Positions 12,715 to 43,871 of a stretch of DNA of 57,512 bases are shown here, in pieces. The stretch covers positions 1 through 57,512 of the forward strand of contig CAZFEG010000001.1 in NCBI GenBank assembly GCA_964517565.1. The letters are read 5' to 3'. The notes beneath the pieces are model-generated. The model worked only from the letters and a program-made list of their open reading frames with translations. It searched no databases and was not told the origin of the DNA. Origin of the DNA: an uncultured Methanosarcinales archaeon (GTDB lineage: Archaea > Nanobdellota > Nanobdellia > Woesearchaeales > SKGA01). Position numbers and translations under genes: made by a program. Within the stretch, counting starts at the first letter, position 1. Each line of letters starts with the position of its first letter.

Positions 12715-12770
12715 AGTTGTAACATCAACAATTATATTACAATTTATTTTATTATGCAAGAAAAAAAATA

Positions 12771-12799: not shown

Positions 12800-12844
12800 G
12801 AAATTGACAGTTTTTTTCGTCGGTTATAAGAAATGAGGGAAATT

Positions 12845-13465: not shown

Positions 13466-13473
13466 AAATATTT

Positions 13474-13587
13474 AAAAGTCTTTTCAAGTCATTAAAATAT
13501 GACGATGTATTATAGAAAACTTAAAGAGTAATTAACTATTTAAATTAATCTTTAGCACCTCAAAAATACTAATTTGAAAAGACTTTT
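13474..13587. repeat. Pair of perfect 14-bp inverted repeats (AAAAGTCTTTTCAA / TTGAAAAGACTTTT) bracketing 86 bp
   Basis: Read directly in the tetR-lipoprotein spacer, with arms at 13474..13487 and 13574..13587. Confidence 0.8.
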
Positions 13588-13641
13588 TATATAAAACAAT
13601 TCTACAATTATTCAAAAAATAAAAAAAGGGAGAAAAGAAAA

Positions 13642-24300: not shown

Positions 24301-24828
24301 TTACTTATATATATTTACAATTGATTTATTTGTTTCTAATCCGATATCTGATAGTACTTTATACAGTGGTTTAAACATCCATAGTACTGTCAAAAATCCT
24401 GTTGTAGCCATGATCAACTCAAATGGAATATCTGAAATCAAATAAGGAATAAAATTCGGTATACCTGTTTGAATCATATTAAATGGAATAAACATCCATC
24501 CATAAATAAATCCAAATACCATTGCGAATAATGCTAGTTTAAGCTCATTTTTCGTTCTTCTTAATATTGTATGATAGCTAAGTGGTATAAGATACCACGA
24601 CAACATCATTGGAACCATATAGAAAACATTAAATCCTCCCATATATAAACTATCTAAGAAAACATATGAAGTAATCATTATCATACTCTCTTTAAATGAA
24701 AACACGCTAACAAATAGGATAATCAATAAAACAGTTAATTGAACATTTGGTAAAAACATTAACAATTGTTCCTGAGTAAAAAGGATAGCAACAGATAATG
24801 CAATCATTAATAATCTTTTCGTTTCCAT
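24301..24828 (-). CDS. ECF-transporter S-component-like small integral membrane protein (175 aa, ~6 TM); last gene of the B12-riboswitch operon
   Basis: The protein is highly hydrophobic with about 6 TM segments, and its size fits ECF S components. The start overlaps the upstream stop (TAATG). Any B12 link is inferred from operon position only. Confidence 0.65.
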   Translation of the reverse strand: METKRLLMIALSVAILFTQEQLLMFLPNVQLTVLLIILFVSVFSFKESMIMITSYVFLDSLYMGGFNVFYMVPMMLSWYLIPLSYHTILRRTKNELKLALFAMVFGFIYGWMFIPFNMIQTGIPNFIPYLISDIPFELIMATTGFLTVLWMFKPLYKVLSDIGLETNKSIVNIYK

Positions 24829-25262
24829 TAATTACCATCTCCTATTTCTGTGAATTCAAATGTAAATACATCACCATCATTTAATGATATCGAGTCTATT
24901 CCCATTGTTGAATATACATCGTTTTCATATATTCCAATATAATTGTCAGACCAATTAGTTTCTATTGTGTCTATTTTCATAATAACTCTACTTCCAAATA
25001 ACACAGGATCACAATTATCATTTATGTTATATGAGTTATCTGCACACATCAAATTGAAGTCTCCATCTAATATTGAGAATAAAGTATCACTTTCTGTGAA
25101 ACCGTATGTTTTATTAAATGTAGTATCTCCAATTTCATCAACAAGAATAATTGTTATTTCACCAAGTGTATCGTTTTTATTTAGTTGTGAAAATATTATT
25201 AAACTAGCCGTTGTAATTGCTATAACTATGATTGTAATTACTAGTTTCTTCAAATTTCTCAC
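24828..25262 (-). CDS. Membrane-anchored DUF4430-like protein (144 aa)
   Basis: An N-terminal TM anchor (LVITIIVIAITTASLIIF) is followed by a single beta-domain ending in YIGIYENDVYSTMGIDSISLNDGDVFTFEF (DUF4430-like pattern). The exact start is uncertain: GTG at 25262, or TTG 9 nt downstream. Confidence 0.7.
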   Translation of the reverse strand: MRNLKKLVITIIVIAITTASLIIFSQLNKNDTLGEITIILVDEIGDTTFNKTYGFTESDTLFSILDGDFNLMCADNSYNINDNCDPVLFGSRVIMKIDTIETNWSDNYIGIYENDVYSTMGIDSISLNDGDVFTFEFTEIGDGN

Positions 25263-25271
25263 ATCCTTGTT

Positions 25272-26636
25272 TTATTTGAAATTATATGGATTAACTGCTG
25301 AATATGTGTTTGAGTACACTTGATAAGCTACTAACGCTAAGAAAGCTTGCGGTGTACTAAAAGCTAAGTCTTCAGTTTGTTCATCATTCTTTTCCCAATC
25401 AAATGAACCAGTTTCAGTTTGAAAACTTAGTAAACTTGTTATTAAGTTCCCATCAGTTTTTGTATAATTTGGTCCAGTAGGATCAATCCCGTTTGCAAGT
25501 AATCCAAGAATTACTTGAGCAATGCTTGATGCATTTTCCGTTCCAGGATAAGTCGTATCTCCCCAAACTACCTCTCTTGTTAGTAATCCCCCACTTTCAA
25601 GTTGAGAAGTACTAATCCAAGAAATAAAATCATTTACTAAATCTTGAACACCAGGTTCATCAGTGTGATTGCTAAGTGCCATAATACTCACCGCTCCTGC
25701 ATCTAATCCAAGATCATATGGAGTTGTTGTAGATAAGTCATCTAAAGCAGCAGATAAATATGTTGAATAATCAAACATATACGTATAACTATCTAATGCT
25801 AGTAATGCATATGCAGTTTGTCCATAAGGACCTACTGTTGCCATATAATTTAATTCTTCCATTAATGTATATGTGTTATATTCAACACATTTTAGTTTCA
25901 CAATCGCCTTAAAATAATCATTTACAGAGGGTTCATCATCCAATACTACTAATGATTCAACTTCTGAATTTGTAACATAATGATTTACGTTATCTAGCAA
26001 ATATAATGCTGCAATTACATTATAATCGATTATTTCATCATTCACATAATCACTTGCATAGTTGTCTAAAAATAAATTGATAGCGTTGTATACAGCTTCT
26101 TGAACAGGGTCCCACCATACAACCTCAAATGAGAATACGTCTTCATCATCAAATTCAATTGAATCTACTCCAGCACTTGCTGGTTCTCCATTCTCTGAAA
26201 GTTGAATAAATGCTCCTTCCATTGGAGTTAATCCATGCATAGACTTTAAATAAATTCCATAGTCTGTTTCATCATACTCGATTGCATAATTTGAATCCAA
26301 CAGATCAAATAGACTTCCTTGAAAATCGTCATTAAATCCGATAGTCTTGATTCCTACAGAGTCATCCTCATAAACGAGATTCACTGTAATAACATTATCA
26401 AAGGTAAGTTGTTGTAATTCTTTGATTAGTCGTCTTAATGTTTCTTGCATTTCTTCAAGATTATTAGTTTCACCTGGTTCTATTTGAGAAGAAGTCATAA
26501 TTGCAAATATTTCGTCTTCCAACTCATCAATTTGTTGTTGTCTTACTTCTAAATCTTCATCTTTTGCATTTAAATTACATCCAGCTAAAACTAATACAAG
26601 TAAAAACACAGATGCCATAGAGAATAGTTTTTTCAT
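25272..26636 (-). CDS. Surface lipoprotein (454 aa): DUF4430-like domain plus prenyltransferase/transcobalamin-like alpha/alpha-toroid domain; first gene after the cobalamin riboswitch
   Basis: The signal peptide has lipobox LAGC. A DUF4430-like segment is present (GIYLKSMHGL...FIQLSENGEPASAGVDSIEFDDEDVFSFEVVWW). The C-terminal half is helical with repeats of the Q..xGxF/W type (SQLESGGLL, FQTETGSFDW). An AAGGAGG RBS lies upstream. Confidence 0.8.
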   Translation of the reverse strand: MKKLFSMASVFLLVLVLAGCNLNAKDEDLEVRQQQIDELEDEIFAIMTSSQIEPGETNNLEEMQETLRRLIKELQQLTFDNVITVNLVYEDDSVGIKTIGFNDDFQGSLFDLLDSNYAIEYDETDYGIYLKSMHGLTPMEGAFIQLSENGEPASAGVDSIEFDDEDVFSFEVVWWDPVQEAVYNAINLFLDNYASDYVNDEIIDYNVIAALYLLDNVNHYVTNSEVESLVVLDDEPSVNDYFKAIVKLKCVEYNTYTLMEELNYMATVGPYGQTAYALLALDSYTYMFDYSTYLSAALDDLSTTTPYDLGLDAGAVSIMALSNHTDEPGVQDLVNDFISWISTSQLESGGLLTREVVWGDTTYPGTENASSIAQVILGLLANGIDPTGPNYTKTDGNLITSLLSFQTETGSFDWEKNDEQTEDLAFSTPQAFLALVAYQVYSNTYSAVNPYNFK

Positions 26637-26662
26637 AAGTTCCTCCTTCTAAGTATTATGAA

Positions 26663-26916
26663 ATAAAAAAAACCATCCTCCCGGATGATTAAACGTATAA
26701 ATAACTAAAAAAATACCAAAGTTAAATAACGATATACTCATGACCCAGGAGTATTACAATTTATTAGATAGCTAGGTAGGTCTACCGGCTTGAATTCGTC
26801 CTACTATGCACCTTCCCGCTAAATAGCAGTGGTATTTTGCATTTCGTCCTTCGTACGGTTGCTGGGACAGCTTGAGATTTTAACTCAATTCCCTGTTATG
26901 TCTTACGACACCTAAT
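26663..26916 (-). promoter_or_regulatory. Cobalamin (B12) riboswitch with terminator-type expression platform
   Basis: The gene strand carries conserved cores. These are AACAGGGAA..GAGTTAAAATCTCAAGCTGTCCCAGCAACCGTA, CCACTG...GCGGGAAGG and the B12 box AGCCGGTAGACCTACC (26775..26790). P1 is TAGGT/ACCTA. Downstream is the hairpin catcc-ggga-ggatg followed by T8. Confidence 0.9.
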
Positions 26917-26928
26917 ATCTACTCTATA

Positions 26929-26957
26929 ATTCTATGACTAAATAAAGCAGTTGTCAA
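26929..26957 (-). promoter_or_regulatory. SigA-type promoter (TTGACA-17-TAGAAT) driving the riboswitch operon
   Basis: TTGACA, a 17-nt spacer and TAGAAT end about 12 nt before the riboswitch P1 stem. Confidence 0.65.
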
Positions 26958-28851: not shown

Positions 28852-28882
28852 ATAATATCGAATAATATTAAGGGTGATTGCA

Positions 28883-29593
28883 ATGAATAAATTAACAGAA
28901 TTATTCAATGAAAAAGACAATTCTAAAATACTTGATATCGGAACGGGTAATGGAAACTTTATTACAATCATAACTCAGCTTACAGATAAGTTTTCTGAAA
29001 TAATTGGAATCGATCTTATTGAATCAGCAATTGAAGGATGCAAAATCTATTTTAAAGACGAGAGAATTAACTTCTTTCATATGGATGCTCTCAGTATGGA
29101 ATTTGAAGATGATACTTTTGATTATGTTTGCTTATCAAATTCTATTCACCATTTAGAAGATATTAAAGCTACTTTAACCGAAATGGAAAGAGTACTAAAA
29201 CCTGGAGGTGCCCTTGTTTTTTGTGAGATGGTAAATAACAATCTTGATAAACGTCAAAAAAGCCATCTATTATTACACCATTTCGCAGCTGAAATTGATA
29301 GAGATAGAGGCAATTATCACGATGAGACTCTTACTAGTAAGCAGATACTGAAATTATTAAAAGAAAAAAGTGCTTTGTCCATAAAAGATGCTTGGGATTT
29401 AAATTATCCTAAAAAAGAGACAAACTCTAAAGAAGAAATAGAATGGTTATATAAAACACTGGAACGAATTATGGAAAGCGTAAAAGAGTCGGATAATTTT
29501 GAATATTTTGAAAAAAAGGCTGAGAAAATAAAAATGTATATTGAGAAGAATGGATTTGATTCAGCTACTTCGCTGATTGTGGTTCTAAAATGA
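28883..29593 (+). CDS. Class I SAM-dependent methyltransferase (twin of 27920..28630)
   Basis: Exact reverse-complement twin with an identical protein. Confidence 0.85.
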   Translation: MNKLTELFNEKDNSKILDIGTGNGNFITIITQLTDKFSEIIGIDLIESAIEGCKIYFKDERINFFHMDALSMEFEDDTFDYVCLSNSIHHLEDIKATLTEMERVLKPGGALVFCEMVNNNLDKRQKSHLLLHHFAAEIDRDRGNYHDETLTSKQILKLLKEKSALSIKDAWDLNYPKKETNSKEEIEWLYKTLERIMESVKESDNFEYFEKKAEKIKMYIEKNGFDSATSLIVVLK

Positions 29594-30102
29594 AATTACT
29601 AAAGATATTTGATAAGAGAGACAAACTACTTGGACATCAGCCTATAATATATCGTGATAGTGTACGAGCAATAATATTAAAAAATAATAAGATACTACTT
29701 GTATATTCAGAAGAATCTAAAGAGTATAAGTTTCCTGGTGGTGGGATTAATGAACATGAAATCAGACATATTGCTTTAAGAAGAGAAGTGTTAGAAGAAG
29801 TAGGAAAAAAAGTTAATAGCGTAAATGAACCCTTAGGATATGTAGATCAAATGTATAATGATATTTATGATGATAGAAAGTATTTCTTTTTAAGATCATT
29901 TTATTATTTTTGTTCTGTGCTTGATGAAGATTTTGAACAGGATTTAGATATATATGAGCAAAATCTAAGATTTGTTCCTAGATGGGTAGAAATAGATGAA
30001 GCAATAAGAGTTAACCAAATAAAATTTGATAATGGTAGTGAATACCATTGGACTGAAAGAGAACTTTATGTCTTAAAATTACTTAAGGGGATGACACAGT
30101 GA
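29590..30102 (+). CDS. Nudix-family hydrolase (twin of 27411..27923)
   Basis: Exact reverse-complement twin with an identical protein. Confidence 0.9.
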   Translation: MKLLKIFDKRDKLLGHQPIIYRDSVRAIILKNNKILLVYSEESKEYKFPGGGINEHEIRHIALRREVLEEVGKKVNSVNEPLGYVDQMYNDIYDDRKYFFLRSFYYFCSVLDEDFEQDLDIYEQNLRFVPRWVEIDEAIRVNQIKFDNGSEYHWTERELYVLKLLKGMTQ

Positions 30103-30542
30103 GAGGTTTTAAAATAGCAAAAGGATACGAGAATCTAGATATAAAATTACCTAAAAGAAGCACTATATATAGTGCTGGATATGATATTGCAATTATTGAA
30201 GATGTTACAATTGAACCTGGAGAAATTAAACTTAGTGTTACTGGATTAAAAGCTTACATGCAAGATGATGAGGTATTAATGCTTTATCCAAGATCTAGCT
30301 TACCTAAAAACTATCATTTAACGATTCCAAACAATGTTGGGATAATAGATAAAGACTATTATGGTAATAAAGACAATGATGGTGCTATATTTGTGTCTTT
30401 ACATAATTTTGGTACGGAAACTACAACCCTTAAAAAAGGTGAAAGAGTAGCTCAAGGAATCTTTCAAAAATATTTAGTAAGCCCTGATGAAGAGGTTGTA
30501 ACTAAAGTAAGAAATGGCGGATTTGGAAGTACTGGAAAATAG
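30099..30542 (+). CDS. dut: dUTP diphosphatase (twin of 26971..27414)
   Basis: Exact reverse-complement twin with an identical protein. Confidence 0.9.
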   Translation: MRGFKIAKGYENLDIKLPKRSTIYSAGYDIAIIEDVTIEPGEIKLSVTGLKAYMQDDEVLMLYPRSSLPKNYHLTIPNNVGIIDKDYYGNKDNDGAIFVSLHNFGTETTTLKKGERVAQGIFQKYLVSPDEEVVTKVRNGGFGSTGK

Positions 30543-30555
30543 TTGTCTCTTTTCA

Positions 30556-30584
30556 TTGACAACTGCTTTATTTAGTCATAGAAT
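30556..30584 (+). promoter_or_regulatory. SigA-type promoter TTGACA-17-TAGAAT (twin of 26929..26957)
   Basis: TTGACA is at 30556..30561 and TAGAAT at 30579..30584. Confidence 0.65.
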
Positions 30585-30596
30585 TATAGAGTAGAT

Positions 30597-30850
30597 ATTA
30601 GGTGTCGTAAGACATAACAGGGAATTGAGTTAAAATCTCAAGCTGTCCCAGCAACCGTACGAAGGACGAAATGCAAAATACCACTGCTATTTAGCGGGAA
30701 GGTGCATAGTAGGACGAATTCAAGCCGGTAGACCTACCTAGCTATCTAATAAATTGTAATACTCCTGGGTCATGAGTATATCGTTATTTAACTTTGGTAT
30801 TTTTTTAGTTATTTATACGTTTAATCATCCGGGAGGATGGTTTTTTTTAT
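30597..30850 (+). promoter_or_regulatory. Cobalamin (B12) riboswitch with terminator (twin of 26663..26916)
   Basis: AGGGAA is at 30619..30624 and the B12 box AGCCGGTAGACCTACC at 30723..30738. The terminator hairpin plus T8 is at 30825..30848. Confidence 0.9.
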
Positions 30851-30876
30851 TTCATAATACTTAGAAGGAGGAACTT

Positions 30877-32241
30877 ATGAAAAAACTATTCTCTATGGCA
30901 TCTGTGTTTTTACTTGTATTAGTTTTAGCTGGATGTAATTTAAATGCAAAAGATGAAGATTTAGAAGTAAGACAACAACAAATTGATGAGTTGGAAGACG
31001 AAATATTTGCAATTATGACTTCTTCTCAAATAGAACCAGGTGAAACTAATAATCTTGAAGAAATGCAAGAAACATTAAGACGACTAATCAAAGAATTACA
31101 ACAACTTACCTTTGATAATGTTATTACAGTGAATCTCGTTTATGAGGATGACTCTGTAGGAATCAAGACTATCGGATTTAATGACGATTTTCAAGGAAGT
31201 CTATTTGATCTGTTGGATTCAAATTATGCAATCGAGTATGATGAAACAGACTATGGAATTTATTTAAAGTCTATGCATGGATTAACTCCAATGGAAGGAG
31301 CATTTATTCAACTTTCAGAGAATGGAGAACCAGCAAGTGCTGGAGTAGATTCAATTGAATTTGATGATGAAGACGTATTCTCATTTGAGGTTGTATGGTG
31401 GGACCCTGTTCAAGAAGCTGTATACAACGCTATCAATTTATTTTTAGACAACTATGCAAGTGATTATGTGAATGATGAAATAATCGATTATAATGTAATT
31501 GCAGCATTATATTTGCTAGATAACGTAAATCATTATGTTACAAATTCAGAAGTTGAATCATTAGTAGTATTGGATGATGAACCCTCTGTAAATGATTATT
31601 TTAAGGCGATTGTGAAACTAAAATGTGTTGAATATAACACATATACATTAATGGAAGAATTAAATTATATGGCAACAGTAGGTCCTTATGGACAAACTGC
31701 ATATGCATTACTAGCATTAGATAGTTATACGTATATGTTTGATTATTCAACATATTTATCTGCTGCTTTAGATGACTTATCTACAACAACTCCATATGAT
31801 CTTGGATTAGATGCAGGAGCGGTGAGTATTATGGCACTTAGCAATCACACTGATGAACCTGGTGTTCAAGATTTAGTAAATGATTTTATTTCTTGGATTA
31901 GTACTTCTCAACTTGAAAGTGGGGGATTACTAACAAGAGAGGTAGTTTGGGGAGATACGACTTATCCTGGAACGGAAAATGCATCAAGCATTGCTCAAGT
32001 AATTCTTGGATTACTTGCAAACGGGATTGATCCTACTGGACCAAATTATACAAAAACTGATGGGAACTTAATAACAAGTTTACTAAGTTTTCAAACTGAA
32101 ACTGGTTCATTTGATTGGGAAAAGAATGATGAACAAACTGAAGACTTAGCTTTTAGTACACCGCAAGCTTTCTTAGCGTTAGTAGCTTATCAAGTGTACT
32201 CAAACACATATTCAGCAGTTAATCCATATAATTTCAAATAA
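30877..32241 (+). CDS. DUF4430-like + alpha/alpha-toroid surface lipoprotein (twin of 25272..26636)
   Basis: Exact reverse-complement twin with an identical protein. Confidence 0.8.
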   Translation: MKKLFSMASVFLLVLVLAGCNLNAKDEDLEVRQQQIDELEDEIFAIMTSSQIEPGETNNLEEMQETLRRLIKELQQLTFDNVITVNLVYEDDSVGIKTIGFNDDFQGSLFDLLDSNYAIEYDETDYGIYLKSMHGLTPMEGAFIQLSENGEPASAGVDSIEFDDEDVFSFEVVWWDPVQEAVYNAINLFLDNYASDYVNDEIIDYNVIAALYLLDNVNHYVTNSEVESLVVLDDEPSVNDYFKAIVKLKCVEYNTYTLMEELNYMATVGPYGQTAYALLALDSYTYMFDYSTYLSAALDDLSTTTPYDLGLDAGAVSIMALSNHTDEPGVQDLVNDFISWISTSQLESGGLLTREVVWGDTTYPGTENASSIAQVILGLLANGIDPTGPNYTKTDGNLITSLLSFQTETGSFDWEKNDEQTEDLAFSTPQAFLALVAYQVYSNTYSAVNPYNFK

Positions 32242-32250: not shown

Positions 32251-32685
32251 GTGAGAAATTTGAAGAAACTAGTAATTACAATCATAGTTATAGCAATTAC
32301 AACGGCTAGTTTAATAATATTTTCACAACTAAATAAAAACGATACACTTGGTGAAATAACAATTATTCTTGTTGATGAAATTGGAGATACTACATTTAAT
32401 AAAACATACGGTTTCACAGAAAGTGATACTTTATTCTCAATATTAGATGGAGACTTCAATTTGATGTGTGCAGATAACTCATATAACATAAATGATAATT
32501 GTGATCCTGTGTTATTTGGAAGTAGAGTTATTATGAAAATAGACACAATAGAAACTAATTGGTCTGACAATTATATTGGAATATATGAAAACGATGTATA
32601 TTCAACAATGGGAATAGACTCGATATCATTAAATGATGGTGATGTATTTACATTTGAATTCACAGAAATAGGAGATGGTAATTAA
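32251..32685 (+). CDS. Membrane-anchored DUF4430-like protein (twin of 24828..25262)
   Basis: Exact reverse-complement twin with an identical protein. Confidence 0.7.
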   Translation: MRNLKKLVITIIVIAITTASLIIFSQLNKNDTLGEITIILVDEIGDTTFNKTYGFTESDTLFSILDGDFNLMCADNSYNINDNCDPVLFGSRVIMKIDTIETNWSDNYIGIYENDVYSTMGIDSISLNDGDVFTFEFTEIGDGN

Positions 32686-33212
32686 TGGAAACGAAAAGAT
32701 TATTAATGATTGCATTATCTGTTGCTATCCTTTTTACTCAGGAACAATTGTTAATGTTTTTACCAAATGTTCAATTAACTGTTTTATTGATTATCCTATT
32801 TGTTAGCGTGTTTTCATTTAAAGAGAGTATGATAATGATTACTTCATATGTTTTCTTAGATAGTTTATATATGGGAGGATTTAATGTTTTCTATATGGTT
32901 CCAATGATGTTGTCGTGGTATCTTATACCACTTAGCTATCATACAATATTAAGAAGAACGAAAAATGAGCTTAAACTAGCATTATTCGCAATGGTATTTG
33001 GATTTATTTATGGATGGATGTTTATTCCATTTAATATGATTCAAACAGGTATACCGAATTTTATTCCTTATTTGATTTCAGATATTCCATTTGAGTTGAT
33101 CATGGCTACAACAGGATTTTTGACAGTACTATGGATGTTTAAACCACTGTATAAAGTACTATCAGATATCGGATTAGAAACAAATAAATCAATTGTAAAT
33201 ATATATAAGTAA
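32685..33212 (+). CDS. ECF S-component-like membrane protein (twin of 24301..24828)
   Basis: Exact reverse-complement twin with an identical protein. Confidence 0.65.
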   Translation: METKRLLMIALSVAILFTQEQLLMFLPNVQLTVLLIILFVSVFSFKESMIMITSYVFLDSLYMGGFNVFYMVPMMLSWYLIPLSYHTILRRTKNELKLALFAMVFGFIYGWMFIPFNMIQTGIPNFIPYLISDIPFELIMATTGFLTVLWMFKPLYKVLSDIGLETNKSIVNIYK

Positions 33213-33277
33213 TTCTTAATGATCCATAACCTTAACAAAAATATCTATTTTCAGTATTACATTAAAAATAGGCAGTA

Positions 33278-33317
33278 AAAAAGACTATGATAAAATTTAA
33301 AACATCATAGTCTTTTT
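33278..33317. terminator. Bidirectional intrinsic terminator (twin of 24196..24235)
   Basis: Exact reverse-complement twin. Confidence 0.85.
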
Positions 33318-33400
33318 GTATGGACAAAATAAAAAATTGCACCTTTTTTTCATTGTCTCCTATGTCAAATTTTATTTTAATTAGGATATTGGTTTTCCTT

Positions 33401-35121: not shown

Positions 35122-36099
35122 TTATAACTTAGGCTTAACCAAATTACATGCAGCAAAATGGCCTTTTTCAATTTCCAGAAGTGTTGGATGTATTTCATGA
35201 CAAGAAGGTATAACATTATAACATCTAGTGCTAAACCTACATCCACTTGGCGGATTAATTGGTGATGCAATCTCACCGTCTAAAATGATTGGATCTGTAT
35301 CTTTGACTGTACTTAGTAGTGCTTTTGTATATGGGTGTATTGGATTATTAAAGATATCATCAACTTCACCATATTCTACTATCTCCCCTAAATACATTAC
35401 TGCTACATAATTACTGATATTCCTTATAACTGCTAGGTTGTGAGAAATGAATAAATAAGTTAAATTCAATTCTTTTTGCAAATCAATTAATAAATTAAGA
35501 ATTTGAGCATGAATAGATACATCAAGTGCTGAAACTGGTTCATCACATATTAGAAATTCTGGATTTAGAGCAATAGCTCTTGCAATGGCAATTCTTTGTC
35601 TTTGTCCACCACTAAAATTGTAGATATGGCGGTCCATATCTGCTTTGTCTAATCCAACTGTTTCTAATAAGCGAATTACATGAAAATCTATCTGTGATTC
35701 ATCAATATTTTTTCTTATTTTATATGGCTCAGCAATAATATCTCTAACAGTAAATCTTGGATTCATTGAAGAATATGGATCTTGGAATATTAATTGCATT
35801 CTAGTTCTAATTTCTTTGTATTCTGATTTTGATACTTTATAAATATCTTTTCCTCTGTATTTTACAGTACCTTGTGTTGGAGAAACTAGGCCTATCATTG
35901 TATTTGCTAGGGTTGTTTTACCACAACCTGATTCTCCAACGATTGCAACACAGTTCCCTTTTTCAATTTTGAGTGAGACGTTTTTGACTGCACTCACATA
36001 TTCTCTTTTTCTTTTTAATATGCTTTTGGCAACTGGGAAATCTACATCTAAGTTTTCTATTTCAAGTATGACTTCTTTTTTAGTATCATCATATGTCAT
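35122..36099 (-). CDS. OppF-like ABC ATPase (twin of 21414..22391)
   Basis: Exact reverse-complement twin with an identical protein. Confidence 0.92.
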   Translation of the reverse strand: MTYDDTKKEVILEIENLDVDFPVAKSILKRKREYVSAVKNVSLKIEKGNCVAIVGESGCGKTTLANTMIGLVSPTQGTVKYRGKDIYKVSKSEYKEIRTRMQLIFQDPYSSMNPRFTVRDIIAEPYKIRKNIDESQIDFHVIRLLETVGLDKADMDRHIYNFSGGQRQRIAIARAIALNPEFLICDEPVSALDVSIHAQILNLLIDLQKELNLTYLFISHNLAVIRNISNYVAVMYLGEIVEYGEVDDIFNNPIHPYTKALLSTVKDTDPIILDGEIASPINPPSGCRFSTRCYNVIPSCHEIHPTLLEIEKGHFAACNLVKPKL

Positions 36100-37091
36100 T
36101 TATCTCCACCTACTTTATTCTTTAATGGATTCCAACATCTAACACGTTGTCCCCCGCCTAAATCAACTAGCGGCGACATACAATTCTTACATATAGTTAC
36201 ATCTGTATTTGAACATCTAGGTCTAAAATAACAACCATCAGGTTTATGCAGTGGATGAGGAACATTGTCAGGAATTTGTGTGAATTCTTGTTTTTCTGTC
36301 CCTATTTTTGGCATTGAATTTATGAGACCTAGTGTATATGGGTGTTTTGGATTCCTAAATACATCTTTTGTTGGACCTTCTTCAACGATTTTCCCACAAT
36401 ACATGACATATACTCTATCCGCGACTCTTCTTACAACAGACAAATCATGAGTAATTAATACTAATGCCATATCGTTTTTCTTTTGTAAGTCTTTAAGTAG
36501 TTGAAGAATTTGAGCTTCAATTGTTACATCAAGAGCAGTGGTAGGTTCATCAGCAATCATCAATTTAGGATCACTTGCGAAAGACATCCCAATTAGTGCT
36601 CTTTGACGCATTCCACCAGATAATTGGTGGGGATAATCATTGTATCTTTTTTCTGGACTTGGAACACCAACTAAACGTAAAATTTCAATTGATGCAATTT
36701 TAGCTTCGCTTTTTGAATATCCAAGTTTTTTAATATAGATTTCATCTATCTGTTTTCCAACTTTTATAACCGGATTTAATGCACTTAAAGCATCTTGAAA
36801 TATCATTGTCATTTTAGTTCCAAGGATATTTTTCATTTGTTTATCTGAATAATTACGTATGTCTACTCCATCAAATTCATGGACCTTTGTATCAACAATT
36901 GCAGGTGGCGTTTGAAGTAATCTCATAAATGCAAGTGATGAAACACTTTTACCGCATCCACTTTCACCTACGATTGCTACACATTCTCCCTTATAAACAT
37001 CAAAATCAATACCTTCAACCGCTTTTACAATTCCTCTTTCAGTTGGAAATATAACTTTTAAAGATCTTATTTTTAGTATTTTATCAGTCAT
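36096..37091 (-). CDS. OppD-like ABC ATPase (twin of 20422..21417)
   Basis: Exact reverse-complement twin with an identical protein. Confidence 0.92.
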   Translation of the reverse strand: MTDKILKIRSLKVIFPTERGIVKAVEGIDFDVYKGECVAIVGESGCGKSVSSLAFMRLLQTPPAIVDTKVHEFDGVDIRNYSDKQMKNILGTKMTMIFQDALSALNPVIKVGKQIDEIYIKKLGYSKSEAKIASIEILRLVGVPSPEKRYNDYPHQLSGGMRQRALIGMSFASDPKLMIADEPTTALDVTIEAQILQLLKDLQKKNDMALVLITHDLSVVRRVADRVYVMYCGKIVEEGPTKDVFRNPKHPYTLGLINSMPKIGTEKQEFTQIPDNVPHPLHKPDGCYFRPRCSNTDVTICKNCMSPLVDLGGGQRVRCWNPLKNKVGGDK

Positions 37092-38085
37092 TGTGTTCAC
37101 CACCCTGATTATCAATAGTTTCCATCTCATCAAATAATTCTTGGATGTATTTACCACTGAGAGTTTTTAGTACTTTGAATTGACTTGAATTTGAGCTCAT
37201 TCTTGGATTAAAAATTTCTTCTAAACTAAATCCAATGAGCATATACGAACTTACTGAAAGAAAGATTCCAAGAGCAGGTGCTAGAATCCACCACCAGTAT
37301 CCAAGTATAAAAGCACCACTAGATTGTGCATCAGCAAGCATTTTCCCCCAACTGATAAATTCAGTATTTCCTAGACCTAAGAAACTCAGTCCAGCTTCAG
37401 CAATCATTACCCCTGCAGCTGTCATAGCTGTATTCATAATTAATTGATTTGATACACCTGGTAATATATGTTTTGTCATAATATACCATTTAGATCCACC
37501 AAATAACTCAGCACTTTTTACATAGTTAGTATTTTTAATTGTAAGTACTTGTGATCTTACAACACGTGATAACCCGGCCCATCCAAATAATGTAAAGATA
37601 AATATAAGCATTGGATAGCTTTTCCCAAATAGATTTGTTAAAACGATTGTAATTGGCAATGTTGGTATTACAAGCATAACATCTACTATACGCATGATAA
37701 CTGCATCTGGCAATTTTCCTAAATAACCAGCTGCGATACCAATAATAGCTCCAGTAAAGGAAATGAGTATTGCAGTTATAATACCAATCGTCATTGATAC
37801 TCTTGCGCCATAGACAAGCATACTAAAGATATCTTGTCCAAATGATGTTGTACCTAGTAAATGATCTAATGACGGACCTACTCCACGTTCACCACGTTGA
37901 AGAACATCATATGGATCATACGGTGCTATTAATGGTGCAAATATCGCAGTTAATGCGAGTAAAACTACTAATATTAGTCCAATACGACCCTTTTTATGGT
38001 TCCAGGTTTTCTTGATAATCCCACCAATCGTTTGAAGGAAATTTATGATAGGATTTAGTATTTTTTTGGTCATTGTATTATTCAT
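37084..38085 (-). CDS. OppC-like permease (twin of 19428..20429)
   Basis: Exact reverse-complement twin with an identical protein. Confidence 0.9.
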   Translation of the reverse strand: MNNTMTKKILNPIINFLQTIGGIIKKTWNHKKGRIGLILVVLLALTAIFAPLIAPYDPYDVLQRGERGVGPSLDHLLGTTSFGQDIFSMLVYGARVSMTIGIITAILISFTGAIIGIAAGYLGKLPDAVIMRIVDVMLVIPTLPITIVLTNLFGKSYPMLIFIFTLFGWAGLSRVVRSQVLTIKNTNYVKSAELFGGSKWYIMTKHILPGVSNQLIMNTAMTAAGVMIAEAGLSFLGLGNTEFISWGKMLADAQSSGAFILGYWWWILAPALGIFLSVSSYMLIGFSLEEIFNPRMSSNSSQFKVLKTLSGKYIQELFDEMETIDNQGGEHND

Positions 38086-39083
38086 CGTCTACCACCATCC
38101 ATTATTCGAGGGTCTAGAACAAAGTATAATAAATCAGCTGTTAAGTTAGCTAATAGTGCTATAGAAGATAAGAATAACATTACTCCCATCATTAATGGGT
38201 AATCATTTTGAAGATTAGCATTAATGAATAGTGTTCCCATACCATTCCAGTTAAATACTTTTTCAATAACTACAGCTCCCCCTATAAGGGCACTTAGTCC
38301 CATCATAAATCTTGTAACAATTGGCAATAAAGCATTTGTTAATGTGTGTCTATATAATATTCTTCCGTTTGATAATCCTTTTGCTCTTGCAGTAAGGATA
38401 TAATCATCAGAAGAAACAACTATTACACTATTTCTTGTACTAACTGCATAACCAACTATTCCACCAATACTCATACTGATAACTGGTAGTGTAGCATTTC
38501 TAATTACATTTAATATTTGTTCAAAAGACCAATCGAATGCAGTCATCATAGATGGATCAGCATACCCTGGTAACCATTCTAATTCAAATCCAATAATCAT
38601 GGATAAAATTAATGCGATAATGAATGCGGGAAGTGCTGTCAGCAAAGTAGAAGAAGCTAGTAGTAAAGTATCAGGTAGCCTTCCTCTTTTCTTTGCCGCA
38701 AAGGTTCCATACATAATTCCTACAATGGAAGAAATCATCATTGTAGATAATGATAAAACTAGCGTCCAAGGGAGCCTTTCAGTTATTAACTTCATTACTT
38801 TAGGTCTTCCTGGTTGGAATGAATTCCCTAAGTCTCCAGAAAGTAGATTTTTGACATAGATAAGATACTGCTCAACTGGGGATTTATCAAATCCATATTG
38901 CTCCCTAGTTAGAGCTTTAATTTCATCATATTCTTCATCTGTCATAGTACCAATCTGTGGTGGGTAATATCTTGACGCAGGATCGTCGTTACCAATTCTT
39001 GGAATGAAGAAATTTATTGTGACAACAGCAAGAAATATTAAAATAGTGTGTGAAATACGTTTTATTACATAATCAAATTTCAT
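38082..39083 (-). CDS. OppB-like permease (twin of 18430..19431)
   Basis: Exact reverse-complement twin with an identical protein. Confidence 0.9.
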   Translation of the reverse strand: MKFDYVIKRISHTILIFLAVVTINFFIPRIGNDDPASRYYPPQIGTMTDEEYDEIKALTREQYGFDKSPVEQYLIYVKNLLSGDLGNSFQPGRPKVMKLITERLPWTLVLSLSTMMISSIVGIMYGTFAAKKRGRLPDTLLLASSTLLTALPAFIIALILSMIIGFELEWLPGYADPSMMTAFDWSFEQILNVIRNATLPVISMSIGGIVGYAVSTRNSVIVVSSDDYILTARAKGLSNGRILYRHTLTNALLPIVTRFMMGLSALIGGAVVIEKVFNWNGMGTLFINANLQNDYPLMMGVMLFLSSIALLANLTADLLYFVLDPRIMDGGRR

Positions 39084-39085
39084 TT

Positions 39086-40873
39086 TTATTTAGAATTTAA
39101 TGTCAGATTTTGTAATGAATCCGAATTGAAAATCAACACATTATCAACGTGAACCCATCCACTGAAAATATCAGTTCTATATGCCGAGGATGTATTTGCT
39201 GTATATAATGGTATCTTATAATTCATGCTGTCGAGATCTTCCTGAATTTCAAAAATAAGTTCAATTTTTCTTGTTCTATCTAACGTTGTTCTCATTTCGT
39301 TTATTTTTGCTTCAAATGATTCATCAACTAATCTTCCATAGTTTGATGAATAACCGATTGTAACAAATTGGGCTCTAAACATCATATCTACATTTACCAT
39401 TGAGAATACAACATTTTGAATTGTCATATCAAAATTACCAATATAGAAGTAATCTTTTGTAGGATTAGTACCACCCTCATGATATTCTATTTTAATTCCA
39501 ATTTGTTCAAAAAGAACTTGAATGTAATTAATTGTAGTTTTTACACCTGGACTACCAGTAATTTTATAATCAAGTAGTACTCCATCTTTACTTCTAAACT
39601 TACTACCTGCTTCAAAAGTATATCCAGCGTCTTCAAGTATTTGGTTTGCTTTGTCTAAATCGTGATCATCCATTGAAATTGAATCATTTACGTAAATACT
39701 ATTTTCTGTGAATAATCCTCCACGAACACTTGAACCTTCTCCATCAAGAGATTGTGTTATTAAATAATCTTGGTCTAAAGCTAGCATAATAGCTTCTCTT
39801 AGAATAGGATCTTTTAATAATTCTCTTTGAGGTGTACTGTATTCTTCAGGAACATTTAGATTTATACATAGTGTTGAAACAAAATCATTAACTGAAGAAT
39901 CCACTTCTACATTTTTTACAGCATTTAATGTGTCAATATAGATATTGCTTATTGAATTATCAATAACATCAATGTCTCCTTCTTGAAGAGCGTTGATTGC
40001 AACTATTTCATCAAGGTAGTTGATAAACTTAATGCTTTCTACTTTGTATAAAATATCCCCATTATCGTCTTTTAAGTGGTAGTCATCTCTTCGATTAAGG
40101 ATGATTACACCTGGACCTGAGTTGTCTACATCTAATGTAAATGGTCCACTACCCATAGGGTTATTGTAAAGGGTAGATTGTGCAGAAGTTGGGTTTGTTG
40201 AGTTGAGTTTGTTTACATGTGAAATAATATTATATTGGTGTTCTGGTAATATCAAAATAGTAGTAAACAAAGGCGTGATACCACCCAATACTTTTTTCAC
40301 ATGTAAATAGACAACATGATCATCTTCATCAGTAAATGTGTAATCTCCAGGATGATCCTTTGTGAAAATACCTTGTCTAATAAGCTCACCTGAATAATCA
40401 CTATTGTAATCATGCATTAAATCTCCAGTCCATGCTAGAGTTCCAGCATGAGATGATCGACTAAAGTCAGATGCTAAATCAAATGAAAAATAGACATCTT
40501 CAGGTGTTACTGGTGTTCCATCACTCCATGTTGCTTCTTTGTTTAAATTTATTTTTACTGCTAAATAATCTTGGTCTTCCGGTACCTCTGTAGGATCAAC
40601 TAAGTATTCCCATGAGTCTCCTAATAATGGATCAAACACATCGTTATCACTATCATATGCGAACAAAGTCGAAAAGATCATGCTTGATAATTCAGTTGCT
40701 ATGCCTTGGTTTGAAAGCCAAGGCATAAACACTGCTGGAAATCCAGTTGAAATATATCCTACGTGTAAGGCTTCGTCGTCTCTAGTTACACTATCCTCTT
40801 TTTCACCACATGAACTCATAACTATAGACATTAAAACGATTATTAAAAGCAATAAGAAACGATTATTTTTCAT
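39086..40873 (-). CDS. Family-5 substrate-binding lipoprotein (twin of 16640..18427)
   Basis: Exact reverse-complement twin with an identical protein. Confidence 0.9.
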   Translation of the reverse strand: MKNNRFLLLLIIVLMSIVMSSCGEKEDSVTRDDEALHVGYISTGFPAVFMPWLSNQGIATELSSMIFSTLFAYDSDNDVFDPLLGDSWEYLVDPTEVPEDQDYLAVKINLNKEATWSDGTPVTPEDVYFSFDLASDFSRSSHAGTLAWTGDLMHDYNSDYSGELIRQGIFTKDHPGDYTFTDEDDHVVYLHVKKVLGGITPLFTTILILPEHQYNIISHVNKLNSTNPTSAQSTLYNNPMGSGPFTLDVDNSGPGVIILNRRDDYHLKDDNGDILYKVESIKFINYLDEIVAINALQEGDIDVIDNSISNIYIDTLNAVKNVEVDSSVNDFVSTLCINLNVPEEYSTPQRELLKDPILREAIMLALDQDYLITQSLDGEGSSVRGGLFTENSIYVNDSISMDDHDLDKANQILEDAGYTFEAGSKFRSKDGVLLDYKITGSPGVKTTINYIQVLFEQIGIKIEYHEGGTNPTKDYFYIGNFDMTIQNVVFSMVNVDMMFRAQFVTIGYSSNYGRLVDESFEAKINEMRTTLDRTRKIELIFEIQEDLDSMNYKIPLYTANTSSAYRTDIFSGWVHVDNVLIFNSDSLQNLTLNSK

Positions 40874-40917: not shown

Positions 40918-41592
40918 TTAATATGGATACTTCATTTGTTTCCCAAAACCTTGTTTAGAAACGGAGTTATTATACACTTCTTCAATATGGAAAACTAATG
41001 CTGGTCTTGTAACCCATCGTTCTATATTTGGTGCATGGTATACATCGTGTTGTGCATTTACAAATTTTTTGTAAATACCATCATCATCTATTTCTACTTT
41101 CCCGCGTAATTCATAAGAAATTACTGGTGGTTGATAGAAAATATAAGTGGCTTCGTTATTAGCCTGTACATTTTCCCATGTGTGATTTTTTGCCATTTCT
41201 AGGGTAGTGAGTAAAGAAAAATCAATTCTATGTCTAACATCATCATTGTATAATTCTTTAACAAGTAAAGCCAAACCTCTTTGGCTATACGCTTCGTCAT
41301 CACCATCATAAGAGTTAATATGTTCCATATATTTTTCGAAAATTTCTTCTAGGTATTCAGGCTTAGGTACATAACCTATACCTTTTATTGAACCGTTTAA
41401 TCCACCAGGACCATTTGTAATTAAGGCTGGGTTGTGTGATGTAAAGTTTAAAAATAATCTGTCTCTTGAAATATCTTCTTTATTATAAATTGCCATTACG
41501 TTTTTAGCTCTTGTTTCAAATGACCATTTAAAGAAATTTGATGCATCTTGCATTTCTTCTTTTACTGGTGTTGCTTCTGCATGTTTTTTCAT
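40918..41592 (-). CDS. Hypothetical 224-aa protein (twin of 15921..16595)
   Basis: Exact reverse-complement twin with an identical protein. Confidence 0.7.
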   Translation of the reverse strand: MKKHAEATPVKEEMQDASNFFKWSFETRAKNVMAIYNKEDISRDRLFLNFTSHNPALITNGPGGLNGSIKGIGYVPKPEYLEEIFEKYMEHINSYDGDDEAYSQRGLALLVKELYNDDVRHRIDFSLLTTLEMAKNHTWENVQANNEATYIFYQPPVISYELRGKVEIDDDGIYKKFVNAQHDVYHAPNIERWVTRPALVFHIEEVYNNSVSKQGFGKQMKYPY

Positions 41593-41621: not shown

Positions 41622-43871
41622 TTATTCTATTGGTTCAGGTTGTGCAGCGAAATCAAATGCTCCATAATTTACGACCATACCAAACATTGGTCCCATTGGA
41701 AGGTAAATCCAAGTTTCAGTTGTTGATATAATTGTTGATTCTTCTAACACTGTTGTATCAATTGTTCCTACGATAGTAGGTAACAATGTAACGCCATCAA
41801 AGTCGTACATTGGTGTAACATATGTAAATGTAATCGTTTGATCTACTAATTCATAAGTTCCTACACCTTTTAATTCTTCATCTGTGTAAATATTAAATAC
41901 ATTACCATCAAATAATTGAATTTGTACGTTAATTCCAGTAGTAGCTTCTTCATCAGTTACTGAAACTGCTTCGTAAGTAAATAAAGCTTCTCTTTTAAGA
42001 GTGATTACTCCATAATCTGCTAAAACACCAAATGTAGGGCCCATAGAGATATAAACATTAGTAGAAGTAGTAGTAATCATTGTTTCTGCTTCTAAAGTAT
42101 CTGTATCTATTGTAGCTTCTATAGTAGGTAATAAATTCCCTTCGAAATCTTGCATTGGTTCTTCATAAGTGAATGTCATTGTTTGTCCTACAAGTTCAAA
42201 ACTACCAGCACCACGTAAAGTATCATTTGCATAAAGTTCAAATGTATTATTATCAAATATAAACACTTTAACTACTGCGCCTGCCATCATAGGTTCTTCG
42301 GAAGTTGAAATTGCTTGGTAAGAATAAAGTAAAACTGGTGCATCAATAAATATCATAATTGTAGTTGTAGTAGCGTTTCCACTGCTATTTACTACATTTA
42401 TAGTGATTGTTCCCATACCAGAACCAGCAACTGATAAATCAACATTATCAGTAATCATATCTAGAGTTACAGGGATATCTCCATCTATTTGATCAGAGAT
42501 TGTGAAATAAGTTGTCCAATCAGGTTCCTCTTCTCCAACAGTAAATGATGTTTGAGTTCCTTCAACTTTTGTTATTACAGCTTTGCAGCCAACAACTTTT
42601 TCAAAAGTAGTAGTACCAACATCCATTACGATAGGCCCTGAACCCATATTGATTGAATATTCTACAGGATCAATTACGATAACTGTAGTTAAATCAGTAA
42701 CATCTGTTGTAGTGATTGTACCTGTAAGTACCCAGTCACCACCATCAGGATGTTCTTCTGTATATGTAAGTGACAGTACACCATCAGTGATATCATAAGG
42801 ACCACTACCGCGTAAGCTGCCTGTCCATAAATCGAATGTCATATTATCATAGAAATTAATTGTTACAAATGTACCAGCTGAAGTCATACCTAGTGGTGCA
42901 GTTCCTTCATACTTAGCAACTAAAACTGGATCATTAATAAATATCATAATTGTAGATGTAGTTGAATTTCCACTACTATTTACTACAGTAATTTTTATAA
43001 CTCCCATTTCAGCTCCAAGAACTGTTAAATCTACTCCATCCATAATCATTTCTTCAGTGACAGGGATATCTCCATCTATTTCATCTGTGATTGTGAAATA
43101 AGTAGTCCAATCAGGTTCTTCGTCTCCAACAGTAAATGTTGTTTGAGTTCCTTCAACCAAAGTTATTTCAGCTTTACAACCATTGACGAATTCAAGAGTA
43201 GTTGTACCAACATCCATTACGATAGCTCCACCACCCATATTGATTGAATATTCTACAGGATCAATTACAAGAACTGTAGTTGGATCAGTAACATCTGTTG
43301 TAGTGATTGTACCAGTAAGTACCCAGTCACCACCATCAGGATGTTCTTCTGTGTATGAAAGTGTTATTACACCATCATTGATTTCATATGGTCCAGTACC
43401 ACGTAAACTGGCTGTCCATAAATCAAATGTCATATTATCATAGAAATTAATTGTTACGAATGTTCCGGCTTCAGTCATACCTTTTGGTGCGACACCTTCA
43501 TAAATAGCAATTAAATCTCCAGTAGGTGCAACAATAACTTCTTCGATTGTTATTGTTATAGATTTTGTTGCTTCATTTTCGGCTTCATCTGATACAGTTA
43601 CACTTACTGTATATTCACCTGGAGTGCTCATGTCTACATTTTCAGTTAACATTGAGTTAGTTACATAAATAGTACCATCAACGTCATCAGAAATAGTGAA
43701 GTATGATCCCCATACAGGTTCAGAATCACCTTGATCAAACGTTGTTTCTAATGCAGTTACCACTGTGATAACTGGACTAGTTGTATCAGCTTCTTCATTG
43801 TTAGACGGATTACATGCGGCTAAAGCAAATACAAGTACAAAACTTACAAATAATAAAATAAATTTTTTCAT
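41622..43871 (-). CDS. Repetitive 749-aa surface lipoprotein (twin of 13642..15891)
   Basis: Exact reverse-complement twin with an identical protein. Confidence 0.85.
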   Translation of the reverse strand: MKKFILLFVSFVLVFALAACNPSNNEEADTTSPVITVVTALETTFDQGDSEPVWGSYFTISDDVDGTIYVTNSMLTENVDMSTPGEYTVSVTVSDEAENEATKSITITIEEVIVAPTGDLIAIYEGVAPKGMTEAGTFVTINFYDNMTFDLWTASLRGTGPYEINDGVITLSYTEEHPDGGDWVLTGTITTTDVTDPTTVLVIDPVEYSINMGGGAIVMDVGTTTLEFVNGCKAEITLVEGTQTTFTVGDEEPDWTTYFTITDEIDGDIPVTEEMIMDGVDLTVLGAEMGVIKITVVNSSGNSTTSTIMIFINDPVLVAKYEGTAPLGMTSAGTFVTINFYDNMTFDLWTGSLRGSGPYDITDGVLSLTYTEEHPDGGDWVLTGTITTTDVTDLTTVIVIDPVEYSINMGSGPIVMDVGTTTFEKVVGCKAVITKVEGTQTSFTVGEEEPDWTTYFTISDQIDGDIPVTLDMITDNVDLSVAGSGMGTITINVVNSSGNATTTTIMIFIDAPVLLYSYQAISTSEEPMMAGAVVKVFIFDNNTFELYANDTLRGAGSFELVGQTMTFTYEEPMQDFEGNLLPTIEATIDTDTLEAETMITTTSTNVYISMGPTFGVLADYGVITLKREALFTYEAVSVTDEEATTGINVQIQLFDGNVFNIYTDEELKGVGTYELVDQTITFTYVTPMYDFDGVTLLPTIVGTIDTTVLEESTIISTTETWIYLPMGPMFGMVVNYGAFDFAAQPEPIE
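42321..43502 (-). repeat. 2 x 591-bp in-frame tandem duplication (twin of 14011..15192)
   Basis: Exact reverse-complement twin. Confidence 0.9.

Follow-up and report, generated by a model that had tools for sequence, protein, structure and literature searches.

The stretch of DNA analysed here (the window: contig CAZFEG010000001.1, 57,512 nt) carries a gene for a 454-amino-acid (aa) surface lipoprotein directly behind a cobalamin riboswitch, which raises the question of whether this protein captures vitamin B12 outside the cell and which transporter it might serve. A first-pass annotation, made from the sequence alone, had flagged it as a candidate extracellular B12 binder. In the present analysis, the locus was read as an operon for corrinoid uptake, repressed by B12, in a wall-less lineage of Bacillota (Izemoplasmatales), and a probability of roughly 0.7 was given to this overall scheme. 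Three genes follow the riboswitch, and their predicted products are the lipoprotein, a small membrane-anchored protein with a paralogous SLBB domain and an S-component of the energy-coupling factor (ECF) transporters that resembles the cobalamin importer CbrT. The features of the locus are as follows.

30556..30584, + strand: sigma-70-like promoter, TTGACA-17 nt-TAGAAT, 11/12 consensus matches, the best in the region
30584..30755, + strand: cobalamin riboswitch aptamer RF00174, 89.8 bits (gathering score 31.5), E 6.1e-21
30823..30852, + strand: intrinsic terminator of the expression platform (30823..30842 plus T-run), stem AATCATCC-GGGA-GGATGGTT
30865..30871, + strand: ribosome-binding site AAGGAGG, 6 nt before the ATG, read from the sequence
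30877..32241, + strand: lipoprotein gene, open reading frame (ORF) with ATG start, 454 aa (signal peptide and lipobox, aa 1-20; helical stalk, 25-78; SLBB/DUF4430 domain, 79-174; toroid, 177-444)
31111..31398, + strand: SLBB / transcobalamin-beta-like domain (aa 79-174), from Foldseek and profile searches
31405..32208, + strand: alpha/alpha-toroid domain (aa 177-444), from AlphaFold2 (AF2) and Foldseek
32251..32685, + strand: membrane-anchored paralogous SLBB protein, 144 aa from GTG 32251 or, likelier, 141 aa from TTG 32260
32685..33212, + strand: CbrT-like ECF S-component, 175 aa with six transmembrane helices, from a profile against 6fnp_A, AF2 and Foldseek
33277..33318, strand not assigned: A/T-flanked hairpin AAAGACTATGAT ... 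ATCATAGTCTTT, found by eye between the convergent S-component and RidA genes

The tie of the lipoprotein gene to B12 was evaluated through its riboswitch. The RF00174 match covers the full model (positions 1-189 of 189) and lies on the same strand as the gene, with the expression platform downstream. To see this in context, a locus scan with one genome per species returned 31 loci, which came from Izemoplasmatales, Xianfuyuplasma, Haloplasmataceae, Liberiplasma and one metagenome-assembled genome labelled 'Bacillales'. RF00174 stood directly upstream on the same strand at 28 of these 31 loci, that is, at all 28 that were assessable, the upstream sequence of L012, L024 and L031 being only 55, 175 and 112 nt long. 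It was also present in 6/6 further contexts, namely Xianfuyuplasma coldseepsis, two operons of the Bacillaceae type and three distantly related members (366-600 aa). The earlier claim that the lipoprotein gene is under B12-riboswitch control was thus borne out both at the locus, where the aptamer is accompanied by a terminator, and by the survey of homologues behind RF00174.

The remaining regulatory signals were in line with this assignment. The intrinsic terminator lies 25 nt upstream of the lipoprotein start codon, and a hairpin with the core CATCC-N4-GGATG and a T-run was found between aptamer and start codon, in near-identical form, in the window and 26/28 related loci; L019 and L023 have different hairpins, each with a T-run. 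The promoter is a consensus match only, and promoter-like sites were not enriched compared with shuffled sequences. As far as the sequence can tell, the promoter-aptamer-terminator layout is the anatomy of a transcriptional OFF switch. At the other end of the operon, the hairpin at 33277..33318 is probably a bidirectional terminator that closes it, which the terminator scan did not flag because it holds fewer than three G-C pairs.

As a separate observation, the terminator core (30826..30852) is almost invariant although the downstream proteins have diverged to 26% identity, and the 3' arm of the hairpin holds the Shine-Dalgarno-like string GGAGGA. This conservation seems to go beyond the need of a terminator, and antiterminator pairing or a kissing-loop partner may be its cause.

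The anchor and domains of the lipoprotein, the first product behind the riboswitch, were analysed in turn. Its N-terminus, MKKLFSMASVFLLVLVLAGC, has a KK n-region and a hydrophobic core, followed by the lipobox L17-A18-G19-C20, which fits the tested pattern [LVI][ASTVI][GAS]C. In an alignment of 59 homologues, Cys20 was invariant and Leu17 was at least 90% conserved. The protein is, by prediction, a substrate of Lgt and Lsp with a textbook lipoprotein signal. A surface location is further supported by the LPXTG anchors found in its stead in walled relatives. The AF2 model, built on the 59-sequence alignment, had a mean predicted local distance difference test score (pLDDT) of 89.8 and a predicted template modelling score of 0.84. 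Behind the lipobox it shows a stalk of two long helices (residues 25-48 and 54-78, pLDDT 60-83). Several homologues gave spurious coiled-coil Pfam matches over this segment, which is missing from homologues of approximately 400 aa.

The stalk is followed by a beta domain, for which the AF2 model gives strands at 81-88 and 94-101, a helix at 109-116, a hairpin at 119-124/127-133 and strands at 142-148 and 167-174. This is a beta-grasp with a beta-hairpin after its helix. The Pfam model DUF4430 (PF14478) matched residues 108-170 at 24.8 bits, marginally above the cut-off of 23.8, and it was matched by 55/59 homologues (best E 1.3e-13). The lipoprotein as a single sequence gave no match in the Protein Data Bank (PDB), and profiles were needed; the family profile A1 matched 3u7z, a DUF4430 protein of R. 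gnavus, at E 4.9e-4 and the broader profile A4 at E 7e-7. None of the three operon proteins had a meaningful match in NCBIfam. When the modelled beta domain was compared with the PDB using Foldseek, it superposed on 3u7z with a template modelling (TM) score of 0.86 and on the human transcobalamin beta domain (5no0/5np4) with E 6e-5 to 1e-4, TM(target) 0.73 and a root-mean-square deviation of 2.4 A. These two entries are the isolated domain in apo and cyanocobalamin-bound form. Isolated beta domains of transcobalamin and intrinsic factor bind B12, and 5np4 is such a complex. On the predicted structure, the beta domain belongs to the DUF4430/transcobalamin-like SLBB clade, and putative corrinoid binding is supported by the genomic context. 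The lipobox, the short coiled-coil-like linker and the DUF4430-like beta domain of the first-pass annotation were therefore all recovered, the linker as the two long helices of the stalk.

The toroid begins approximately two residues after the beta domain, and approximately 12-13 helices were modelled across residues 177-444. Foldseek matches to this domain had a probability of about 1.0 and E-values of 6e-4 to 1e-2. The best were class II terpene cyclase domains (8zg0 and 6sbf, E ~6e-4), and the matches included intrinsic factor (3kq4_A, E 1.8e-3 over 314 columns; also 2pmv), rat transcobalamin (8ixu, 305 columns), drimenyl-diphosphate synthase, MstE, squalene-hopene cyclase, the complement thioester-containing domain (TED), GH88 and GH105. 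Judged from the model, the helical domain is an alpha/alpha toroid that is structurally no closer to transcobalamin than to cyclases. When the broader family profile was run against the PDB, intrinsic factor was the only toroid match, and a weak, sub-threshold one (E 0.013, 18.3 bits; profile positions 210-293 aligned to 21-106). In the lipoprotein, the Pfam models Prenyltrans (PF00432), SQHop_cyclase (PF13243/PF13249) and Cobalamin_bind (PF01122) had no match at E<0.1, and all were absent from the 25 Pfam families that gave most matches in the 59 homologues. Matches to Prenyltrans and SQHop_cyclase were confined to distant relatives, for example P0252 (32.7 and 38.3 bits). The toroid is thus visible through structure prediction and distant relatives only, being too divergent for any Pfam model.

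Within the toroid, the QLESGG motif lies at residues 345-350, and Q345, G349, G350, G410, F412 and D413 were invariant or nearly so among the 59 homologues. The catalytic motifs DxDD and DDxxD were not found in the lipoprotein sequence, which has only three His and, outside the lipobox, Cys250 as its sole Cys. The toroid-type repeats described earlier were accordingly retained in part: the quoted motifs are present and the fold was recovered by AF2 and Foldseek, and of the proposed profile hits DUF4430 was obtained, while those to the prenyltransferase/terpene-cyclase models and PF01122 were missing. The proposed structure comparison did lead to transcobalamin and intrinsic factor, and the reversed order of the transcobalamin parts, with the beta domain (79-174) ahead of the toroid (177-444), was upheld by the DUF4430 match, AF2 and Foldseek.

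The second gene encodes a small SLBB protein with an N-terminal hydrophobic helix, read directly from the sequence. Its homologues begin with MKKLV, as would a product started at TTG 32260, and AAGGA at 32245-32249 is better spaced for this codon than for GTG 32251; the product is probably 141 aa long. It shared 30% identity with the lipoprotein beta domain over 103 aa (E 3e-6). The family profile gave only noise against the PDB. Its identity as an SLBB protein was assigned because the family matched the lipoprotein beta domain in a profile-profile comparison (hhalign, probability 99.0%, E 3.4e-18) and the protein itself gave a weak DUF4430 match (17.8 bits). In addition, residues ~69-85 contain a 12-residue insertion relative to the lipoprotein beta domain, flanked by Cys (C-ADNSYNINDN-C), which is kept in most close homologues and missing from the deeper-branching loci L021, L022, L026, L027, L029 and L031. 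It is possibly an extracytoplasmic disulfide loop in the region of the hairpin, which in transcobalamin makes contact with B12.

The start of the third gene overlaps the preceding stop codon (TAATG). Its 175-aa product had no Pfam or NCBIfam match, and a single-sequence search of the PDB gave only noise. A profile of 32 homologues, however, matched the 182-aa chain 6fnp_A at E 1.8e-4 over its whole length (2-165 aligned to 8-175), and both carry a PNVQ motif. In the AF2 model (pLDDT 87.3) six helices were obtained, and the top 10 Foldseek matches in the PDB were all ECF S-components (BioY, RibU, FolT and PanT; 4huq_S with TM 0.73), at weak E-values of 0.085 or higher. A small-xxx-small (AxxxA) motif in helix 1 of other S-components mediates docking on EcfT. 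At the corresponding positions of the present family, position 10 was A in 26 sequences and S in 6, and position 14 was A in 22, S in 6 and T in 4. Two homologues were labelled 'ECF substrate-specific component' by JGI, and one carries PF12822. From its length and the published description (PMC5997447), we infer that chain A of 6fnp is CbrT. The entry 6FNP is ECF-CbrT of Lactobacillus delbrueckii, an experimentally proven importer of cobalamin and cobinamide (PMC5997447). The 175-aa protein shares the PNVQ motif and the six helices with it and differs in its low sequence identity; ECF-CbrT was moreover characterised without an extracytoplasmic partner (Santos et al. 2018), and the L. delbrueckii cbrT cluster, nrdJ-cbrS-cbrT-pduO (PMC5997447), is unlike the present cassette of lipoprotein, SLBB protein and S-component. 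By profile and predicted fold, the downstream protein is a CbrT-like ECF S-component. This partner strengthens the B12-uptake reading beyond what the first-pass annotation had offered.

The conservation of the cassette and the breadth of the family were also assessed. The order lipoprotein, SLBB protein, S-component was kept at 29/29 loci with enough downstream DNA. The S-component was the most conserved product of the cassette (36-89% identity) and the lipoprotein the least (26-74%). In an exhaustive profile search, 3265 cluster representatives matched at E<=1e-3; a limit of E<=1e-10 left 766 of them, and one of E<=1e-30 left 137. Proteins of 360-420 aa that span the beta-plus-toroid core without the stalk are numerous, as are multidomain proteins of 600-3400 aa. 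In the 798-aa 'DUF4430 domain-containing proteins' of Caldifermentibacillus hisashii, one of the walled Bacillaceae, DUF4430 and a toroid are combined with a second toroid, which matches Prenyltrans/SQHop_cyclase, and an LPXTG anchor. The C. hisashii operon consists of RF00174, the surface protein, a small DUF4430 protein, a CbiQ-like T component, a double-ATPase gene and an S-component. The operon of a related metagenomic contig has the same order, from RF00174 and the surface protein through the CbiQ-like T component to the S-component, with a second small gene where C. hisashii has the DUF4430 protein and ABC ATPase genes where it has the double-ATPase gene. The two Bacillaceae-type loci are given below.

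L034 (C. hisashii-type contig), 7001..13900: Bacillaceae-type locus with a PF12822 S-component in the operon
L035, 7001..13214: Bacillaceae-type locus with a PF12822 S-component in the operon

With a complete dedicated ECF module encoded behind RF00174, the Bacillaceae operon is, judging by gene content, the group I version of the same system.

Taken in order, the proposed scheme would work as follows. At low intracellular cobalamin, the RF00174 aptamer would be empty, the terminator would remain unformed and the three genes would be transcribed. The lipoprotein would be anchored through diacylglyceryl to the single membrane, and its helical stalk of approximately 55 residues would hold out the SLBB-toroid module. 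Free corrinoid would be captured in a putative cleft between SLBB and toroid, by analogy with transcobalamin and intrinsic factor; that the lipoprotein binds corrinoid at all is considered quite probable. The ligand would then pass to the S-component, either directly or via the small anchored SLBB protein, which may be an intermediate carrier or a partner in trans. Having taken the ligand, the S-component would dock on a shared EcfA/A'/T module encoded elsewhere, which would power import. Such a shared ECF module is the group II arrangement of the established ECF literature. For a true hand-over of corrinoid from lipoprotein to S-component, the chances are put at even or slightly below. The broader proposal, in which the lipoprotein and the small SLBB protein together form an extracytoplasmic capture-and-relay layer feeding corrinoids to the S-component, is rated slightly less likely than not.

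Several points weigh against the corrinoid-uptake scheme. No ECF module (EcfA/A'/T), B12-dependent enzyme, B12-processing gene or adenosyltransferase was found in the 28.7 kb of unique sequence in the window. The best structural matches of the toroid are terpene cyclases rather than transcobalamin, and its sequence tie to intrinsic factor, at E 0.013, is marginal. The linker of approximately two residues between the domains contrasts with the long flexible one of transcobalamin, and the mechanics of opening and closing may differ. The general view is that ECF transporters need no extracytoplasmic binding protein. The literature searched contained no report of binding or transport by bacterial DUF4430+toroid proteins, and experiments link a related split alpha/beta pair, that of Lactobacillus sakei, to the uptake of haem (bioRxiv 10.1101/864751).

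Alternative roles for the lipoprotein were weighed on the same evidence. It could bind corrinoids merely as a surface reservoir or for competitive sequestration, like BtuJ1 or BtuH of Bacteroides, with the S-component importing free corrinoid alone. In both proteoliposomes and E. coli, ECF-CbrT does move cobalamin without an accessory binder (PMC5997447), and the faster evolution of the surface proteins (26-74% identity) than of the S-component (36-89%) would fit a dispensable or competitive layer; yet the three genes are strictly inherited together, with translational coupling through the TAATG overlap, and the pairing with ECF components is kept from Izemoplasmatales to Bacillaceae, which makes this role unlikely. 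That the module instead binds haem, another tetrapyrrole or a corrinoid precursor rather than complete cobamides is a good deal less probable again. A precedent is the L. sakei ECF operon lsa1836-1840, which is experimentally linked to haem uptake. Its separate secreted proteins Lsa1839 and Lsa1840 are transcobalamin alpha- and beta-like and extracytoplasmic, and a tetrapyrrole hand-over to the S-component of Lsa1836-1838 was proposed (bioRxiv 10.1101/864751), as in the present scheme; for archaeal members, a different metabolite has been suggested as a possibility by Burroughs et al. (PMC1796856). The L. sakei system differs, however, in having alpha and beta on separate polypeptides, an ECF module of its own and haem rather than B12 as ligand, and its S-component lacks the conserved residues known for cobalamin binding, according to the authors (bioRxiv 10.1101/864751). 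In the present family, a cobalamin riboswitch lies upstream of every assessable homologue examined, and the nearest relative of the partner S-component is CbrT. Uptake of a precursor would be a nuance rather than a rival, since CbrT carries cobinamide as well as cobalamin (PMC5997447).

An enzymatic role of the helical domain, as a terpenoid cyclase, a prenyltransferase-like enzyme or a 'peptidase' that acts on a surface substrate or remodels corrinoids, was suggested by the class II terpene cyclases at the head of the Foldseek matches, by the faint Prenyltrans/SQHop_cyclase matches of distant relatives and by the name 'peptidase' that NCBI gave to two homologues. Catalysis is disfavoured because the lipoprotein is without DxDD or DDxxD, and the enzyme reading was rejected for these missing motifs and considered highly improbable; the protein has just three His and one non-lipobox Cys (Cys250), no Pfam enzyme family was matched in it or appeared in the 25 families most matched by its 59 homologues, its extracytoplasmic location offers no supply of prenyl diphosphate, and the toroid is always joined to the ligand-binding SLBB domain. 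Equally improbable is a generic surface lipoprotein (adhesin or antigen) that merely precedes the transporter gene as the real target of the riboswitch. A variable coiled-coil-like stalk and fast divergence are typical of mollicute surface lipoproteins, and one homologue bears a weak EMYY_lipop Pfam label, but the two-domain core is kept across 3265 cluster representatives, the gene always stands first behind the riboswitch and the domains match those of the eukaryotic B12 carriers in particular.

The corrinoid-uptake reading was then compared with known and predicted systems. The SLBB superfamily was defined by Burroughs, Balaji, Iyer and Aravind (2007; Biol Direct 2:4, PMC1796856), who also reported bacterial proteins in which an SLBB domain is fused to a toroid on its N- or its C-terminal side (a C-terminal example is Bacillus gi 42782379). 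Signal peptides and Gram-positive anchors were noted in these fusions, and their operons contained a further, paralogous SLBB gene and had CbiO/CbiQ neighbours; the carriers lacked B12 biosynthesis, and B12 scavenging was predicted (PMC1796856). The proteins, now named 'DUF4430 domain-containing protein', are like the present one in the order SLBB then toroid, the signal peptide, the second SLBB gene, the ECF/Cbi-type transporter neighbours and the predicted scavenging, and the lipoprotein is demonstrably homologous to the LPXTG-anchored Bacillaceae members. It differs in that a lipobox replaces the LPXTG or cell-wall anchor, as expected in a wall-less host, and a stalk of approximately 55 residues is added; unlike the Bacillaceae operons, with their dedicated T component and ATPases, the window operon encodes an S-component only, in group II style. 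The 'new system' of the first-pass annotation, with the inverted domain plan as its novelty, thus did not survive, as both orders had been described in 2007 (PMC1796856). The architecture is unsurprising to a specialist and no new kind of system, its design having been predicted already. New here are the lipobox anchor and stalk in wall-less Izemoplasmatales, the minimal three-gene operon with an S-component only, the explicit partner link to the characterised CbrT and the quantified riboswitch association.

With transcobalamin, intrinsic factor and haptocorrin (2BB5, 2PMV and 4KKI), the lipoprotein shares an alpha6/alpha6-type toroid and a beta-grasp with the clade-specific beta-hairpin. At best it would function like that family, and it is not a member in architecture, since the order is beta-alpha rather than alpha-beta and the linker is short; it is also lipid-anchored rather than secreted, lacks a PF01122 match and, in place of receptor-mediated endocytosis, presumably delivers to a membrane S-component. 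The Bacteroides surface lipoproteins BtuG, BtuH and BtuJ1 and the periplasmic or lipoprotein binder BtuF are functional parallels, being riboswitch-controlled, surface-exposed, lipid-anchored and devoted to corrinoid capture for a membrane transporter in multi-protein relays. Their folds are unrelated, that of BtuG being a beta-propeller and that of BtuF the class III type of substrate-binding proteins. BtuJ belongs to DUF4465 (PMC13616437). These proteins work at an outer membrane, with a TonB-dependent or BtuCD transporter, in contrast to a single-membrane cell with an ECF S-component. A review of September 2026 called extracellular cobamide capture in Gram-positive Firmicutes 'entirely uncharacterized', while that of Bacteroidota is well worked out (PMC13616437). 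The statement that no B12-capture protein of this architecture has been characterised in Gram-positive or wall-less bacteria still holds for the literature searched, which yielded the 2007 prediction and the haem work on L. sakei but no biochemical or structural study of bacterial DUF4430+toroid members.

The structure of the window itself also had to be considered. The 57,512 nt are their own reverse complement with 0 mismatches and a symmetry centre at 28756/28757 (junction letters ...GGGCAAATTAATTTGCCC...). The unique sequence therefore amounts to 28.7 kb, and each gene is present twice as a mirror image, as in the following features.

24301..26957, - strand: mirror of the whole cassette, promoter to S-component; the window equals its reverse complement
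26758..26929, - strand: mirrored RF00174 riboswitch, RF00174 match

In the closest relatives, L006, L017, L001 and L002 (at most 88% nucleotide identity), collinearity with the window begins at ~28784-28816. Upstream of this point their DNA is unrelated to the window, and the mirror junction is not common to them. The junction is most likely a foldback chimera that arose in assembly or amplification, because the collinearity of the relatives starts only beyond it and their upstream DNA is unrelated. The twin at 25272..26636, once taken for a second copy of the gene, is simply the mirror image; the idea of two copies of the locus was dropped in view of the perfect palindrome and the unshared junction, and a single locus was retained.

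Among the neighbouring genes, a trio for a methyltransferase, a NUDIX hydrolase and a dUTPase (28874..30542, + strand) lies directly upstream of the cassette on the same strand. L001-L011 and L014-L020 have the trio in this place and orientation; the methyltransferase gene is absent from Xianfuyuplasma (L032), where the other two are present, and the deeper-branching loci keep the dUTPase gene alone, inverted. The pattern resembles conserved synteny with genes for nucleotide sanitation, whose functional tie to B12 is not obvious. An Opp-type oligopeptide ABC operon occupies 35122..40873, and beside it two ORFs on the - strand, of 749 aa (41622..43871) and 224 aa (40918..41592), had no Pfam match at E<=1e-5. 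A 663-aa ORF (52806..54797, + strand) contains two Bact_surface_Ig-like domains (PF16403), and its product is probably a further surface protein of the wall-less organism. Two MarR regulators, a 736-aa MFS transporter and a pair of ABC exporter half-transporters are encoded near it.

The family to which the lipoprotein belongs is large, is linked to the riboswitch at all assessable loci examined and shares its modules with the animal B12 carriers. As a test case, the lipoprotein is compact (454 aa), with a confident model, a single cysteine in its soluble part (Cys250) and a minimal three-gene operon, and the Bacillaceae group I version would offer, in a host that can be cultivated, a further good model for experiments. 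With these, it can be asked whether B12 is bound by the transcobalamin-like proteins of bacteria, whether binding proteins can serve ECF transporters and whether the same sandwich site forms in the reversed domain order. If cbrS of L. delbrueckii encodes a small SLBB/DUF4430 protein, it would be the counterpart of the anchored SLBB protein, and the accessory layer would exist in a model organism too. If the relay is true, binding proteins would be found in the ECF class, which textbooks define by not needing them, and the BtuG/H/J relay of Bacteroides would gain its first demonstrated counterpart in a Gram-positive or wall-less organism. The operon would also provide a tractable bacterial representative of the lineage that has been proposed as the horizontal-transfer source of animal transcobalamin and intrinsic factor.

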